64,000 bases of DNA, from NCBI GenBank assembly GCA_945861615.1, contig CAMAVH010000002.1:2955-66954 (forward strand). Reading direction: 5' to 3'. Within the stretch, counting starts at the first letter, position 1, and every line of letters starts with the position of its first letter. Made by a program: the position numbers. Positions 21,001 to 42,000 of this stretch are shown piece by piece. Source of the stretch: Rhizobium sp. Q54 (GTDB lineage: Bacteria; Pseudomonadota; Alphaproteobacteria; SMXQ01).

Positions 21001-24000
21001 TTCCTGACGCAGAACCGCGAAGTCTACGACTACATGGACGGCATCTGTCCGCTGCGTCGGTGCGCCGACCATCAATTCATCACCTACGTCGAGCGCGATA
21101 ACGCCTTCTACAACTACCCGATCCATGTCGATGACATCGCCAAGATGCCCGATGCGGCCTTGATTCAGGGCGAGATGGCGGCGGCAAAGGGTGTCGAGAA
21201 CGCGCAGAATCTAGAAGAATATTGGATCGGCTCGGTCGGCCAAACGCTCTACGACAAGTTCATCAAGGAATATAATAAAAAGATGTGGCTGGTGGACGAT
21301 GTCAGCACCATCGACACCTTCAGCTGGTCCCCCAAAGGCGTGACGATTAAAAGCGGCCCGCGCGCCGCATGGGATACCGCCTTATCCGCCTATCCTTATG
21401 CCGAAGACGGTTATAACCGCTTCTTCGACGTCACCACCGAAGGCGTCAACGTCCGCCTGAAAACCAAGATCGAACGCTACGACATTCCCAAGCGCACAGT
21501 CTGGATCGGCGGCGAGAAGATGACTTTCGACGTCATCATCAACACGATCTCGCCGGACGAACTTTTCGAGAAATGCCACGGTGAACTGCCGTTCCTGGGG
21601 CGCGACTTCCACAAAATTGTGTTCCCCACGGAGCATGTGTTTCCGGAGCATGTTTACTTCCTGTACTACGCGAATGACGAAAAGTTCACCCGCCTCGTCG
21701 AATACAAGAAGCTCACGCATCACAAGTCGCCGACGTCGCTTGTCGGCATGGAAATTCCGTCGCTGAACGGCAAGCATTACCCATTGCCGTACAAAGCGGT
21801 GCAGAAGCTCGCCACCGAGTACTACAAAATGATGCCCGACAACGTTTATTCCATCGGGCGCGCTGGCAGCTATCGCTACGGTCTCGACATCGACGATTGC
21901 ATCGAGCAGGCCTTCATCATGGCCAAGCAGATCAAGGAAGGCGGCAATGACTACCCCGTGCCCATGGAAATGTGGCGCTGACGCTTCGGCCGTGCGCGGA
22001 TGAAATACCGCCTCATCACGGTCAGTTGGGGACAGGCGCACACCGACATCTTCCTGCGCTTGACGCTGCGTTCGCTATTGGCGCCCGGCAATTTGGCGGG
22101 CGCGCCTGCCGGCACTTTCAGCTACCCGATCTACACGACGCGCGAAGACGCTGATCGCCTGCAGGCGGACGCGCTCTTTCGCCGCGCTTGCGAACTTGCC
22201 GATGTCTCGATCGAGACCTTTTCGCTCAAAGAAATCGATGCCGGGAATTCGATTTCGCACTGGGTGTTATGGCGTCGCGGAATCGCCCAAGCCCGCAAGA
22301 ACGGCGAAATCGTCATCACCGTCGCCGGCGACCATATTCTCAGCCGCGGTACGCTCGCCCGCTGGCGCGAACTGTTCGAATCGGGCAGCGTCGCGATCTT
22401 CTCGCCGGGTTTGCAGGTCGTCCGCGAAACGCTGAAGCCGGAACTCGATCGCCGCTTCCCGCAGGCCATGCCCATCGATTTGCCTGTCGAGGACTTGCGG
22501 GCGCTGATGCTGGCGCACCTGCACCCGTCGAACATCATCATGTTTCCCGATTGCCCGGCGACGACGACTCATCCCGAATATCGCCTGATGCCTTTGCCGG
22601 GCCGCGGCTTTCAGCAGTCCATTCGGACATCGCACGCCGTCGCGTTCAATCCGGGCGCGGTCGCGACCACCGACAATCTTTGCCCGCTGGAAAAGCTCGA
22701 TCGGATCGCGTTCGAACCTTGCCGTTTCCTGAGCGCCGAACCCTTCTTCAAGGCCGCTCCCCACTACATGATGCATGAGAGACTCGACGACGTGGCGCTC
22801 AGCCGGCTCGGCAGCTGGGCGGACGAATATATGTCGCCTGTCCATATGCTCGAGAGCGACGTCGTCCATTCCTATAGCTTGACGGCGTCATCGCCGGCGG
22901 AATTGCGCATGGGCGAACAGGCCCTTGGCTTTCAGCGTCGCCAATTGTTGGCGAGCCGCACGCTGTTTCGCGTCTGGCGGAGCCTGCGCACCGCTGGACT
23001 CATCGAAACAGCCCGTTGGCTCGCCGCCGGCGCCGTGTACGGCCGCCTACGTCGGCAAATCGCTCTGCGCGGCCCCCTCACCGTGTTTGCCCCCATCGAT
23101 TATTCGTTGCTGCGCATCGCGCCAGACCAGGCGAACAGCTTGCTCAACGGCAAAGCGCGCGCGCTGATCAAAACGATCAAGGGGCATATCGCCCTGGGCG
23201 AACACGCCTTCAAGCCGGGTCAGCGGCTCGACATTTTCAGAGATGGCGGCATCGTACTGGCCGATGGCCGCGGGCTTGATCGGCGCGCCGATGGCCGCAT
23301 CCGCATCGTCGGCCAGCCTCTGCGCGTCGACAACATTCTTATCTATCCGGTCGACCGCCCGCTGATGCGGTTGTCGATGCGCGCCCTGACGCGTGAAGAC
23401 CGCCTCGCGCAGGTACGGCGGATATGCCGCCGCAGCCTGTTGCATTCCAAAGCGCAGCTGAAGCAACTGGTCATCGCCGGATTGCGCGAATGCCCGCGCG
23501 CGATGGCCCTCGCCCAGAAGATACGCAACCGAATGTATGCCGCGGGCAATCTGGAGACGGACGGCACGCCCTCATTGACGCTTGAGGCGCTTGCGGCCCT
23601 GCGCGGCGCCGTGCGCGCGCGCGCCATCGCTCAGGCGCAACGGCTCAATCGCTTTTACGCCACCGAGGTCCTCGGCGGCGGCCCGTTGGAGAACACCGTT
23701 CTCACGAGGTTTTCCCAATGCCTGGAGCCACCTGACGCCGTTTCGAACGATCCCGCCGCTGGACTTATGGCGGTGCTCGACGTCAGCCCGGATTTTTCGG
23801 AAGCTTGGCTTGAGACCGCATATCAACGGCGTGACGCGGGCGATCTCGACGGCGCGCTTGACGCATTGGCGAAGGCTGCAACGACGAAGCCGCGCCTGCG
23901 CCGCAGCTTAGCCGATCCGCATCCCCATCTGGTCGCCGCCATCGAAATCGCGATGATTCATTCGGACCGACAAGAGCCGGCGCAAGCCTTGGCAGCGCTG

Positions 24001-39000: not shown

Positions 39001-42000
39001 GTCCAAGCGCAAAAATCCGAGTTCGAGCCATGCTTCGGCAAAAAACACATGCTTGCGCACGATTTCGACCAGTTTGCTTTCGAGCAAGGCGCGCGTTTCG
39101 GCATTGTCCTGCGACCAGGGTCCCAGCAAGCTGCGGATATAGCCCAGCGGGGCACTATCGCGCGCGCCGCCGAGCGCCGCGGCTTGGTAATGCGTCAATA
39201 CGTCGACCAGGGCATGAAGCGCCCGGATATTCATCACGGCTTCGAGCGATTTTTGGCTTGCTGGCGTGGGGCGCCGGCCGCGGATCGCCATGCTCAAATC
39301 GCCTGGGCGTAGATCAATGCGCCAGCTGACGAGTGTCGAGGCGCGCTGCAACGCCGCCAAGGCGCCATAGCGATTGACGTAGCGCACGCCGCGCGGCACC
39401 AAACCGGCGATGCGCAGCAGCGGCCTAGTGACCGGACTGATGCGCCTGTTTACACGGCCGAACATGTAACCGATATGCGGATAGCGTCCCGCCAAACGTT
39501 TGCGAATGCCGGATGCGCCCTCCGCTTCCCAGACGCGCAAGACTTTGGCAGCAGGATCGGCAAGAACGCGCAATGAGCGGATGCCTTTCATCCACAGGAC
39601 GACGGCCAGCAGGAGGCGATAGACCGCACGCCCAAAAATCGGCAGCGGCCGACAGGCCAAGCGGCCGAGCCGCCGCAACAGGCGGCCACTCAGGCGCAAG
39701 ATGCGCCCCGGCAAGCGAATCGTCCAACCTGCCAAACGGCGCAATCGCCGCCACACCCCTTTCACAACGCGCCTCGGCCGAAGCCGCGCGAACTGCGATT
39801 CCGAAGCGGCCTGATTAGGGGTGGGCTGAGCCGGGGGCGCGTCGGTTTGGCCAGCCGCCGATGATGACACGCTCAATTCGACCGGCGGCTGAAGCAGCAG
39901 ATCGTCAACTTGGTAGACCGTCAAACCATCAACCACATGGGGGCCGCTGGCAATGCGCGGATCGAAGCCCAACGCGGCCAGATCCTCGCCGTTGCCGGAA
40001 ATCCAACGACGCGTGCCATCCGGCTGAAGATGCGGGGTGAACAAGTGCGCGAGCATCAGCCGTTGAAGCTCCCTCTCCTGGCCAAGCTTCAGGCAATCCC
40101 AGACCCAGCCATTCTCGGCGCGCAGCAACACCTCGCCGCGCGGCATAAAGATCACGCTCTCGGGTGATACAACAAGCTTGCGGCGCAGCGGTAGCACGTG
40201 GTGCGCCGTCGCGAGAAAGACCGCCGGCCAAAAATCTTGAATCGATCCAGCCGTCCAATCCCAGAGCCGGTAAATGCCGAGCGACAGGCGCAACTGGGCG
40301 CGCAAGAAGCGCCCACCGTTCGCGGCGCGAGCGCGAAGATGGAGCGAAACTTCGTTCGTTTGCCGCGAGAAATCATACAGATGGGCGCTTTCGGCGATCG
40401 TGCCTTTCGGCGAGAACGAACGCCACCAGGCGCCGAGCCGCGTGATGCTTTCCTGGTCCAGCGGGGCCGGACGATAGAGCCATTCCGCAGTCTTCATCAA
40501 AGGCTCGCAGCTCAGCACCGAGAAGGGCTCGAAGCAGATGTCGTCGAGATGATCCTCGACGTTGAACATCGTGATCTTCACGAAATGATTGGGATCGATG
40601 CAGAAAGGCTGCGATGTGAAGACGCGCATGACGAAGCCTTGTCCGTCAAGCGCGCGCAGGTCGTGCTCCGGATGCTGGGTCCGACGCGGCGAATCACGGA
40701 ACATCGCAGCCTCGGCCGGATGCATGTGGCGCAACAGCATCTCGAGCATTTCATCCTGCCCGATCGCAATTATGCCGTCGCCCGTCGCGTGCGCCTCGAT
40801 CTCCGGCAACGCGGTTTCGAGCGCCACGAACGGCCCCGGCGTATAGACCGCGCGATAGCCTTCCGCAAAGCGCTGCGCCCAGCGCGTCAATGTGCCTTCG
40901 GCATAGACCAGATCGGGAATGAGCAGGAACAGCGTTTCACGGTTGCGACGGGCCAGTTCCAAGCCGCGTTGCCACAAGATCGCATGCGAACCGCGATTGG
41001 CCGGATCGATTTCCCCAAGACCGAAGATCGACAGATCGACGTCGACCAGTTCAGAGACCGCGGCAAACAACGGAGAAGCCCGCAACCGTTCGGCGTCCTC
41101 GGCGGTCGTATAAATCGTCCAGCGGCAGGTGTGGCTGCGCGCGAGGTCGGGCAGGTTGCCGGCCGCCATCAGGCTGCGCAGCGCGACATGCAAAAACAGA
41201 TCGACGAAGGGCGCGCCCCAGATGACCGTGACAAGACGAATGTTCATCGCTGAGGTCACGCCTGCACCCCCGCCGGCTGCAGACAATCGCGCGCGAAGGA
41301 TTCCAGGCTGTCGCGCACCGTCGGCGCTCGATAGCCAAGCGACAGCGCGCGCGTGAGATCGATCAGAAACGGCGCCTTGCCCTCATCGGCGAAGGTCACG
41401 GCCGGCGGCTTGCCGCTCACGCGATAAAGCGTGCCGATAACGTCACGCACCGCCAGCGGCTCGCGCGCCGCGAGATTGGTTACCGCATGGCTAGCCACAG
41501 CGCCGGCCAAGGCGCGCGACAGCCAATCGGCGATGAAAACGCAGAGATCGCCGACATAGACGATGTTGTTGAACGGCGCCTCGGGATTGTTGGCGCGGAT
41601 CGGTTCGCCTGAAAGGATCTTGCCCATCACGGTAGAGAGGAAGTTGTGATGCGAACCGCGCCCGACCGTGCCCGGCAGGCGGATCGACAGGGCCGAGAGC
41701 CCCGCCTCGGCGCAGAGCGCCGCGATCATCCGTTCGGTGGCGAGCTTCGATTCGCCATAGGGATCCGGTTGTTCGGGGCACAGATCCTCCGTCACCACCG
41801 GCACGGCGATCTTGCCGTAAACCGACATGGACGACAGATTGACGATGGCGCGCGCGCCGGCGGCGCGCATGGCGCCGAGCAGGCGTTCGGCGCCGCCGAC
41901 ATTGGAACGCGTCAGTTGCGCGGGATCCGGGCAAAGTCCGGGAATATCGGCCGCGCAATGAACCACCGCGTCGAAAGCGGCTGGCAGCGGCAGATCGCGC

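Follow-up and report, generated by a model that had tools for sequence, protein, structure and literature searches.

Fasciclin-associated GT-A-like proteins as candidate glycosyltransferases of an ABC-transporter-dependent glycan locus in Rhizobium sp. Q54

Introduction

In glycosyltransferases (GTs) with the GT-A fold, the nucleotide sugar is bound on the face formed by strands beta-1, beta-2 and beta-4, and the DxD motif sits at beta-4. The C-terminal domain of the wall teichoic acid enzymes TarS, TarP and RmlT mediates oligomerization or acceptor binding, and COLGALT1 and CHSY3-CHPF contain GT-A domains that are non-catalytic. New divergent GT-A families are found regularly. Here, we describe four paralogous genes in a 64,000-nucleotide stretch of Rhizobium sp. 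Q54 (contig CAMAVH010000002.1, positions 2,955 to 66,954 of the forward strand; hereafter the window, to which all coordinates refer), whose products combine an N-terminal domain of about 300 residues with a fasciclin (FAS1) domain and with tetratricopeptide repeats (TPRs), fused or separate. We propose, with a probability of roughly 0.6, that the four proteins are cytoplasmic Leloir-type glycosyltransferases (GT-A, GT2-like) that build the glycan of the ABC-transporter-dependent locus in which they are encoded.

Results and Discussion

Four paralogous genes inside a glycan locus

An original prediction, made from the DNA sequence alone, had placed four large genes with a common N-terminal domain inside a glycan locus. 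All four open reading frames (ORFs) are present, and the family content of the neighbouring ORFs confirms the placement. We refer to the four genes as W1 to W4 and to the stand-alone TPR genes as TPRa and TPRb:

22000-24171, plus strand: W1 (723 aa), with a GT-A-like domain at residues 2-293 (22003-22878), linker and FAS1-like domain at residues 295-457 (22882-23370), and basic linker and TPR tail at residues 458-723
32498-33955, minus strand: W2 (485 aa), with a GT-A-like domain at residues 6-312 (33020-33940), and long helical linker and FAS1 domain at residues 311-480 (32516-33025)
33960-34865, minus strand: TPRa (301 aa), a basic N-terminal region followed by TPR repeats
34862-36397, minus strand: W3 (511 aa), with a GT-A-like domain at residues 11-317 (35447-36367), and linker and FAS1 domain at residues 311-496 (34910-35467)
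36394-37383, minus strand: TPRb (at most 329 aa, its GTG start being uncertain), a TPR protein
38650-41247, minus strand: W4 (865 aa), with a GT-A-like domain at residues 2-296 (40360-41244), degenerate FAS1-like domain at residues 311-469 (39841-40317), Arg-rich amphipathic segment at residues ~490-545 (~39613-39780) and TPR at residues ~737-836 (38740-39039)

The likely start of W4 is the ATG at 41247, located 8 nt beyond the stop codon of the upstream epimerase gene; the ORF is extensible to a TTG at 41286. The shared N-terminal domain is well supported, since pairwise BLASTP comparisons gave E values of 4e-40 to 2e-131 (29-43% identity across 290-480 aa), which places the paralogy far beyond chance. 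A hidden Markov model (HMM) of the domain, searched against the six-frame translation of the window, recovered exactly four copies, and a possible fifth at 46520-47002 (minus strand) was rejected as a chance match (10 bits, no tblastn support). The conserved motif blocks that had been described are present, with deviations in W1, which carries HLHP, GDHILSRGTL and SHAVAF. As predicted, none of the four proteins has a signal peptide, and none has a convincing transmembrane segment; the first beta-strand starts 2-25 residues from the start codon.

A divergent GT-A-like fold with a faint GT2 signal

The N-terminal domain had been described as unassignable to any known family, and for the curated sequence families this is correct. 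The domains of the four paralogs matched nothing in Pfam or NCBIfam at E<=1, and assignment at the sequence level was abandoned after searches of PDB with a single sequence and with 4-, 12- and 92-sequence profiles also returned nothing significant for this domain, the 12- and 92-sequence profiles giving no match. In public annotation, relatives are called "hypothetical protein" or bear a name taken from the FAS1 part alone.

Structure comparison gave a different outcome. An AlphaFold2 (AF2) model of the domain built from a 12-sequence alignment reached a predicted local distance difference test score of 87.3 and a predicted template modelling score (pTM) of 0.86, and shows a single Rossmann-like alpha/beta/alpha domain with the GT-A strand order. 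In structural comparison about 170-200 of its 312 residues align, and the final ~110 residues make up a subdomain specific to the family. The top Foldseek matches included COLGALT1 and CHSY3-CHPF. Among sequence profiles, PF00535 (GT2) was the sole recurrent weak Pfam match, detected in 15 of 92 superfamily members scanned singly (best E 0.0012, sub-threshold), and every other Pfam family was matched by at most five of the 92. None of the four paralogs matched the CAZy GT2/PF00535 profile at E<=1, so that the relationship to GT2, as read from the sequences, is remote and short of membership.

Fold assignment was the test that the original prediction had itself proposed for the novelty of the domain and, once applied, it argues for a divergent GT-A/GT2-like enzyme with a faint GT2 sequence signal rather than for a new kind of domain. 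According to the model, the N-terminal domain is a very divergent, unannotated branch of the GT-A (GT2-like) superfamily. The accompanying suggestion of a new family of polysaccharide-acting enzymes, either transferases or modifiers, thus holds in that a transferase is the best reading, and fails in that the domain is not of a new kind.

Conserved residues and the proposed active site

Residue numbers below follow W2, and conservation was taken from the 92-sequence superfamily alignment. W24, G25, N45, D126 and H192 are conserved in all 92 sequences, followed by D241 (99%), G132 and G144 (98%), T61 (90%), D256 (89%), D131 (88%) and E158 (85%). In the secondary structure of the W2 model, W24-G25 come right after beta-1, T61 lies at the end of beta-2 and D126 is located three residues past beta-4. 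The block xPD...ADGTL of the original prediction is thus interpretable as a degenerate DxD region, because D126 follows beta-4, where the DxD of GT-A enzymes sits. D126 is followed by a hydrophobic residue at x+2 and, five residues on, by a second Asp (D131) with G132 next to it; this position was mapped from secondary structure only. The invariant H192 falls within the motif previously noted as HMHP. In the proposed site, W24-G25, T61 and D126 with D131-G132 would bind the nucleotide sugar at the C-terminal ends of beta-1, beta-2 and beta-4, and H192, D241 and the acidic residue at 256 would complete metal binding and catalysis. The conservation pattern fits an active enzyme.

The incomplete DxD motif would also suit an enzyme that has the GT-A fold and is not a glycosyltransferase, such as a sugar-phosphate nucleotidyltransferase, or a transferase that attaches phospho-sugars or polyol phosphates as non-glycosidic substituents. 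We regard this as quite unlikely: the recurrent weak Pfam match is GT2 and not NTP_transferase, and the locus already encodes an HldE-like activating enzyme. Moreover, the G-x-G-x-R loop that is the signature of nucleotidyltransferases is absent after beta-1, where all members have W-G-E/x followed by a helix.

Some or all of the copies could instead be non-catalytic pseudo-glycosyltransferase scaffolds that organize modifying enzymes through FAS1 and TPR, like the inactive GT-A domain of COLGALT1 or CHPF. The Foldseek matches to these proteins and the existence of four copies, each with protein-interaction modules, are compatible with such a role, as is the Arg that W1 carries at position 131 in place of Asp. 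All four window copies, however, retain the invariant set of the 92-member alignment, including D126, E158, H192, D241 and an acidic residue at 256, and a GT fold is so far established for no other protein of the locus. Scaffolding is, therefore, a very improbable explanation.

FAS1 domains in all four copies

A FAS1 domain had been predicted in three of the four proteins; the domain itself is borne out, and the count has to be raised, as all four carry a FAS1-like domain. PF02469 (gathering score 22 bits) matched W2 with 39.3 bits (E 9e-10) and W3 with 24.0 bits, both above the cutoff, and W1 with 20.3 bits, just below it; W4 was not detected. The sequence is degenerate in W1 and W4. A family-specific profile of linker and FAS1 matched W1 to W4 at E 3e-25, 2e-55, 7e-47 and 1.7e-11, respectively, and a four-sequence profile found the FAS1 domains of periostin and TGFBIp in PDB at E 1e-10. 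The AF2 model of full-length W2 (pTM 0.84) matches TGFBIp FAS1-4 (TM 0.60), periostin, LRC6 and AstaP. It is because the family-specific profile covers all four copies, beside the Pfam, PDB-profile and W2-model matches, that we assign FAS1 to each of them, and the similarity, which the original prediction wished to see confirmed by profile search, withstands it.

FAS1 domains are typically secreted or located at the cell surface, and here they accompany neither a signal peptide nor a transmembrane segment. The cytoplasmic location had been called atypical; it is indeed unusual, yet there are precedents among the PDB matches, namely CupS and the phycobilisome linker LRC6, both of which we take to be intracellular FAS1 proteins. 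In the W2 model, a 33-residue helix joins the GT-A-like and FAS1 domains. The high pTM of this two-domain model suggests that FAS1 may pack rigidly on the catalytic domain through the long helix.

TPR modules and the cationic linker

The predicted pairing of each protein with a TPR module, fused or separate, stands, with one correction: the separate TPR genes had been placed downstream of their N+FAS1 genes (N denoting the shared N-terminal domain), and each lies directly upstream instead. On the minus strand the order is TPRb, W3, TPRa, W2. The TPRb stop codon overlaps the W3 start codon and the W3 stop codon overlaps the TPRa start codon (ATGA in both cases), and 4 nt separate the end of TPRa from the start of W2. 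A TPR gene directly upstream of a short N+FAS1 gene recurs in distant relatives.

TPRa matched TPR_2 at 2.8e-10 and TPRb matched TPR_14 at 5.8e-7, and the C-terminal tails of W1 and W4 matched TPR profiles at 2e-4 to 4e-4, under the gathering scores. TPRa and TPRb share 37-40% identity and show weak homology to the W1 and W4 tails, which extends to the basic segment that precedes the repeats. Owing to this homology, the fused and split forms can be considered the same module. The linker of W4 is strongly cationic and amphipathic (helical hydrophobic moment 0.92, net charge +6 to +8 per 18 residues), and the consensus of the family tails is likewise rich in Arg and Leu; this composition suggests that the linker may bind the membrane surface.

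Superfamily size, architectures and subfamilies

The four genes had been regarded as an expanded four-member family. An exhaustive profile search recovered 4021 cluster representatives at E<=1e-3 (1185 at E<=1e-30), and the window copies belong to three old subfamilies, all of them with full-length orthologs in other genomes, so that there is no local expansion. W1, W4 and the W2/W3 pair show ~30% mutual identity in the N-terminal domain, and a recent local expansion was rejected on the grounds that W1 and W4 are closer to full-length orthologs elsewhere (37-41% and 34-38% identity, respectively) than to each other. W2 and W3 (43% identity) with TPRa and TPRb look like a tandem duplication, the sole such pair among the copies as far as sequence comparison indicates.

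Architectures were surveyed in 169 proteins, comprising 165 retrieved family members and the four window copies. The length remaining after the N-terminal domain peaks at 150-200 aa and at 400-600 aa, and 144 of the 169 carry the linker and FAS1 module; N+FAS1 and N+FAS1+TPR can thus be considered the standard architectures of this branch. Other fusions in the family involve sulfotransferase, FkbM or other methyltransferase, GT2, HAD and SASA domains and, in one representative, GT41 (OGT-like).

In reference genomes, the wider superfamily is found mostly in Alphaproteobacteria (Azospirillum, Nitrospirillum, Tagaea, Stellaceae, Xanthobacteraceae and a Bradyrhizobium metagenome-assembled genome) and scattered elsewhere, with the closest relative being 31-35% identical. 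The loci often hold 2-4 copies of the N-terminal domain each, the majority of them without FAS1. FAS1 as a hallmark of the whole superfamily was rejected, given that its profile matched just 6 of the 115 ORFs with the N-terminal domain in these loci. Because most reference-genome members lack it, FAS1 is not essential to the catalytic domain. Most superfamily members also lack TPR.

Gene content of the glycan locus

A single glycan locus extends from ~740 to ~45850 of the window. Its heptose-type precursor set spans 742-14898, and the features most relevant to the four genes are the following:

742-1317 and 3416-3958: HAD phosphatases, heptose precursor set
2794-3381: SIS/GmhA, heptose precursor set
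3955-4689: transaldolase-like gene, heptose precursor set
6892-8451: HldE-like kinase/nucleotidyltransferase, heptose precursor set
12270-14002: split transketolase, heptose precursor set
15386-16150, minus strand: Wzt (254 aa, nucleotide-binding domain only), part of an ABC-2 glycan exporter with Wzm
16155-16982, minus strand: Wzm, the ABC-2 permease
18286-18738, plus strand: SxtJ-like membrane protein
18751-18906, plus strand: 51-aa hydrophobic ORF, in the place taken by a DUF5989 gene in syntenic loci
18917-20752, plus strand: carbamoyltransferase
20830-21981, plus strand: UDP-galactopyranose mutase (Glf; Pfam GLF, 5.8e-31), which supplies UDP-galactofuranose (UDP-Galf), directly upstream of W1
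37401-38576, minus strand: 391-aa protein with weak matches to Methyltransf_25, 11 and 23 (sub-threshold class-I methyltransferase similarity)

Wzm and Wzt are encoded beside the biosynthetic genes, as in ABC-transporter-dependent glycan loci, in the arrangement NUDIX-Wzt-Wzm. The presence of transketolase and transaldolase-like genes in a glycan locus suggests a dedicated supply of sedoheptulose-7-phosphate. The W1 start codon lies 18 nt past the Glf gene. The locus also encodes a UDP-glucose dehydrogenase, five epimerases/dehydratases, two GDSL (SGNH) enzymes and a weaker GDSL-like paralog, an Acyl_transf_3 enzyme and at least seven methyltransferases of the TylF, FkbM and class-I types.

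Pfam scans of the locus ORFs matched none of the classical GT families, and so far the four paralogs are the only proteins of the locus for which models indicate a GT fold. Several further ORFs have no family assignment. Those at 16987-18150, 42155-42586 and 42590-43411 (all minus strand) lack Pfam and PDB matches and have counterparts with 40-63% identity in the same cassette of other organisms. The first, of 387 aa, adjoins Wzm, and the other two, of 143 and 273 aa, form a pair that adjoins an epimerase; the three could be further unrecognized glycan enzymes. A 529-aa ORF at 1304-2893 (minus strand), inside the sugar-precursor block, likewise lacks Pfam and PDB matches and is a candidate gene only. 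Searches for sequence relatives in PDB with 16987-18150, 1304-2893 and 42590-43411 found none.

The SxtJ-like gene, the 51-aa ORF and the carbamoyltransferase (18286-20752) are conserved as a trio in two loci of other contigs (L082 and L089), and resemble the saxitoxin sxtJ/K/I arrangement, here in a polysaccharide locus. An ORF at 25289-26665 (minus strand) was rejected as an unknown protein, being the opposite-strand shadow of an FkbM methyltransferase gene located at 25319-26356 (plus strand; PF05050, E 3.5e-9); its apparent homolog in L089 lies where a Methyltransf_21 gene is called on the plus strand. The ORF of the UDP-glucose dehydrogenase (8988-10685, plus strand, TTG start) overlaps a GFO/IDH/MocA oxidoreductase ORF (8482-9408) by ~420 nt, and its true start is probably further downstream, since the dehydrogenase domain begins at residue 144. 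At the edge of the glycan locus, two overlapping minus-strand ORFs, 44853-45296 and 45115-45852, cover positions 173-258 and 79-154, respectively, of the TylF O-methyltransferase profile, and the region 44853-45852 looks like a frameshifted or decayed methyltransferase gene. Just right of the locus, a Rad52/Rad22 and DUF968 protein (47626-49056, plus strand), a phage-like recombinase, marks its boundary, possibly as a mobile-element remnant. Beyond 49056 the genes are unrelated (a BrkB-Rrf2 fusion, a CHASE hybrid histidine kinase, cytochrome c and TauD).

Synteny and the question of protein glycosylation

Syntenic arrangements recur in unrelated contigs with GT-like proteins that are 30-55% identical; the loci concerned are designated here by L-numbers. 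L089 has the order SxtJ, DUF5989, carbamoyltransferase, Glf and a W1-type gene, and L084 has Glf followed by a W1-type gene; Glf directly upstream was also counted for L089/L090. In L088, the gene of the unknown 387-aa protein is followed by Wzm, Wzt, a W1-type gene, a W4-type gene and the 391-aa gene. L086 reproduces the window's own order, with an epimerase, a W4-type gene, the 391-aa gene, a TPR gene overlapping an N+FAS1 gene by 4 nt and a GDSL gene. A TPR gene overlapping an N+FAS1 gene was also found among aminosugar genes in another locus, and in L082 many of these genes form a cassette of similar order. In the Bradyrhizobium assembly, a W4-type gene, the 391-aa gene and Glf occur together. 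Orthologs of the 391-aa protein (42-61% identity) adjoin genes with the N-terminal domain in L001, L082, L084, L086 and L088, consistently beside W4-type genes, which suggests that the two act as a functional pair. Across 79 genome loci, Wzm homologs lie within 10 kb of genes with the N-terminal domain in 24, and heptose-precursor genes accompany the family in 23-28.

This genomic context also bears on a further explanation, namely that the four proteins are protein glycosyltransferases in which TPR recruits the substrate that the GT-A domain glycosylates, for instance a flagellin, a pilin or a surface-layer protein, in the manner of OGT and FlmG. An association with TPR, by fusion or by coupling, is obligatory, the proteins are cytoplasmic and lack a signal peptide, and the GT41 fusion noted above provides a link to OGT. 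However, the genes lie in operons with Wzm and Wzt, as exemplified by Wzm-Wzt-W1type-W4type in L088 and by the frequency of Wzm near the 79 loci, and scans of the window ORFs turned up no flagellar, pilin or S-layer gene. Furthermore, the TPR part is C-terminal or separate, unlike the N-terminal substrate arm of OGT, and its absence from most superfamily members does not fit a substrate-recruiting function. We thus consider protein glycosylation unlikely.

Proposed function in glycan assembly

Beyond the fold, domain architecture, residue conservation and synteny described above, we infer for the four proteins an enzymatic activity, a sugar specificity, an association with the membrane and roles for the FAS1 and TPR parts. 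As cytoplasmic glycosyltransferases, the four enzymes would together build a glycan from sugars supplied by the locus through the heptose-nucleotide pathway and as UDP-Galf, and the methyl-, carbamoyl- and acyltransferases of the locus would decorate it. The polymer would grow attached to a lipid carrier on the inner side of the membrane, and Wzm/Wzt would then export it. We know of no use of UDP-Galf except as a GT donor; for this reason, and given that a W1-type gene comes directly after Glf in the window and also in two of the four other loci examined, the W1-type proteins would be the best candidates for a galactofuranosyltransferase. FAS1 and TPR may hold the acceptor or assemble the enzymes into a membrane-associated complex.

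Several observations weigh against this proposal. The similarity to GT2 remains sub-threshold, and the classical DxD is not intact, with one invariant Asp, a hydrophobic residue after it and a second Asp five residues later. That the conserved residues gather in a single pocket is something we infer from secondary-structure positions. The ORFs at 16987-18150, 42155-43411 and 1304-2893 could encode other glycosyltransferases, which makes the claim that the four proteins are the sole GT candidates a weak one. No lipid-linked initiation enzyme (WecA/WbaP-type phosphoglycosyltransferase) was found among the scanned window ORFs, and this enzyme may be encoded elsewhere. Outside the window, four independent W1-type loci were examined, and Glf adjoins the W1-type gene in two of them; of the remaining two, one is a contig of 4 kb. 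In L001, Glf belongs to the same cluster and is non-adjacent. Finally, as described above, FAS1 is missing from most superfamily members of the reference genomes.

A more far-reaching form of the proposal, which we regard as possible and rather speculative, is that the GT-A and FAS1 combination, with or without the Arg-rich linker and TPR, represents a new glycosyltransferase family and a new organization of ABC-transporter-dependent glycan synthesis, widespread in Alphaproteobacteria. FAS1 would then grip the polyprenyl-linked or growing acceptor or set the geometry of an assembly line, and TPR with the amphipathic linker would tether several such enzymes, along with methyl- and carbamoyltransferases, to Wzm/Wzt. 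The suggested grip on the acceptor draws on an analogy with AstaP, a FAS1 protein whose ligand is the long isoprenoid astaxanthin.

These results provide a fold and a testable function for a large family (~4000 clusters at 50% identity) annotated as "hypothetical" or "fasciclin surface protein", and a candidate for a new CAZy family. They also offer glycosyltransferase candidates for a conserved heptose/galactofuranose/O-methyl/carbamoyl glycan locus of Azospirillum, Nitrospirillum, Bradyrhizobium-like and many soil Alphaproteobacteria, and point to fasciclin domains as predicted accessories of intracellular enzymes. What is new here is an unannotated, widespread GT-A branch with an unusual accessory domain, and neither a new fold nor a new type of system.

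Comparison with known systems

Searches of the available literature found no paper describing a combination of glycosyltransferase and fasciclin, or of GT-A and FAS1, and nothing relevant on TPR with galactofuranosyltransferase or on related locus features. At the level of the whole locus, the closest parallels are E. coli O9a (WbdA/WbdD) and the Klebsiella O-antigens, which also combine Wzm/Wzt with cytoplasmic multi-domain glycosyltransferases and methyltransferases and with non-catalytic spacer or interaction modules. They differ in that the paralogs are not GT1, GT2 or GT4 by sequence, the window Wzt (254 aa) lacks a carbohydrate-binding domain and the initiating enzyme is not in the window.

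The galactofuranosyltransferases GlfT2 (GT2), WbbM/GT111 and GfsA share with the W1 subfamily a gene located beside Glf (in L084 and L089/L090 for the latter). There is no similarity to them at the sequence level, and Galf transfer by W1 is suggested by synteny alone. OGT/SPINDLY (GT41) and FlmG likewise combine a TPR array with a glycosyltransferase, and the TPR part of the four-paralog profile matched OGT TPRs weakly (E 7e-4). In those enzymes, an N-terminal TPR precedes a GT-B catalytic domain that acts on protein substrates, whereas here the domain is GT-A-like and not GT41-like, the TPR is C-terminal or separate and the genes lie in a polysaccharide-export locus. TGFBIp, periostin, MPT70, CupS, LRC6 and AstaP resemble the four proteins in the FAS1 domain, at both the profile and the fold level. 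The classical FAS1 proteins are secreted and serve as adhesion modules; in the paralogs, by contrast, FAS1 is fused to a predicted enzyme that has no signal peptide.

The wall teichoic acid enzymes TarS, TarP and RmlT, together with the chondroitin polymerase K4CP and SpsA, are comparable in that a non-catalytic C-terminal domain follows the catalytic one, and in that they work in the cytoplasm on a lipid-linked polymer prior to its export, as predicted here. Identity to these enzymes is only 6-13%, and the four paralogs lack a significant Pfam GT2 match. Compared with GT2-type GT-A enzymes, the paralogs have D-x4-D-G in place of DxD, an invariant His (HxHP) and a family-specific C-terminal subdomain of ~110 aa, and their accessory domain is FAS1 together with TPR.

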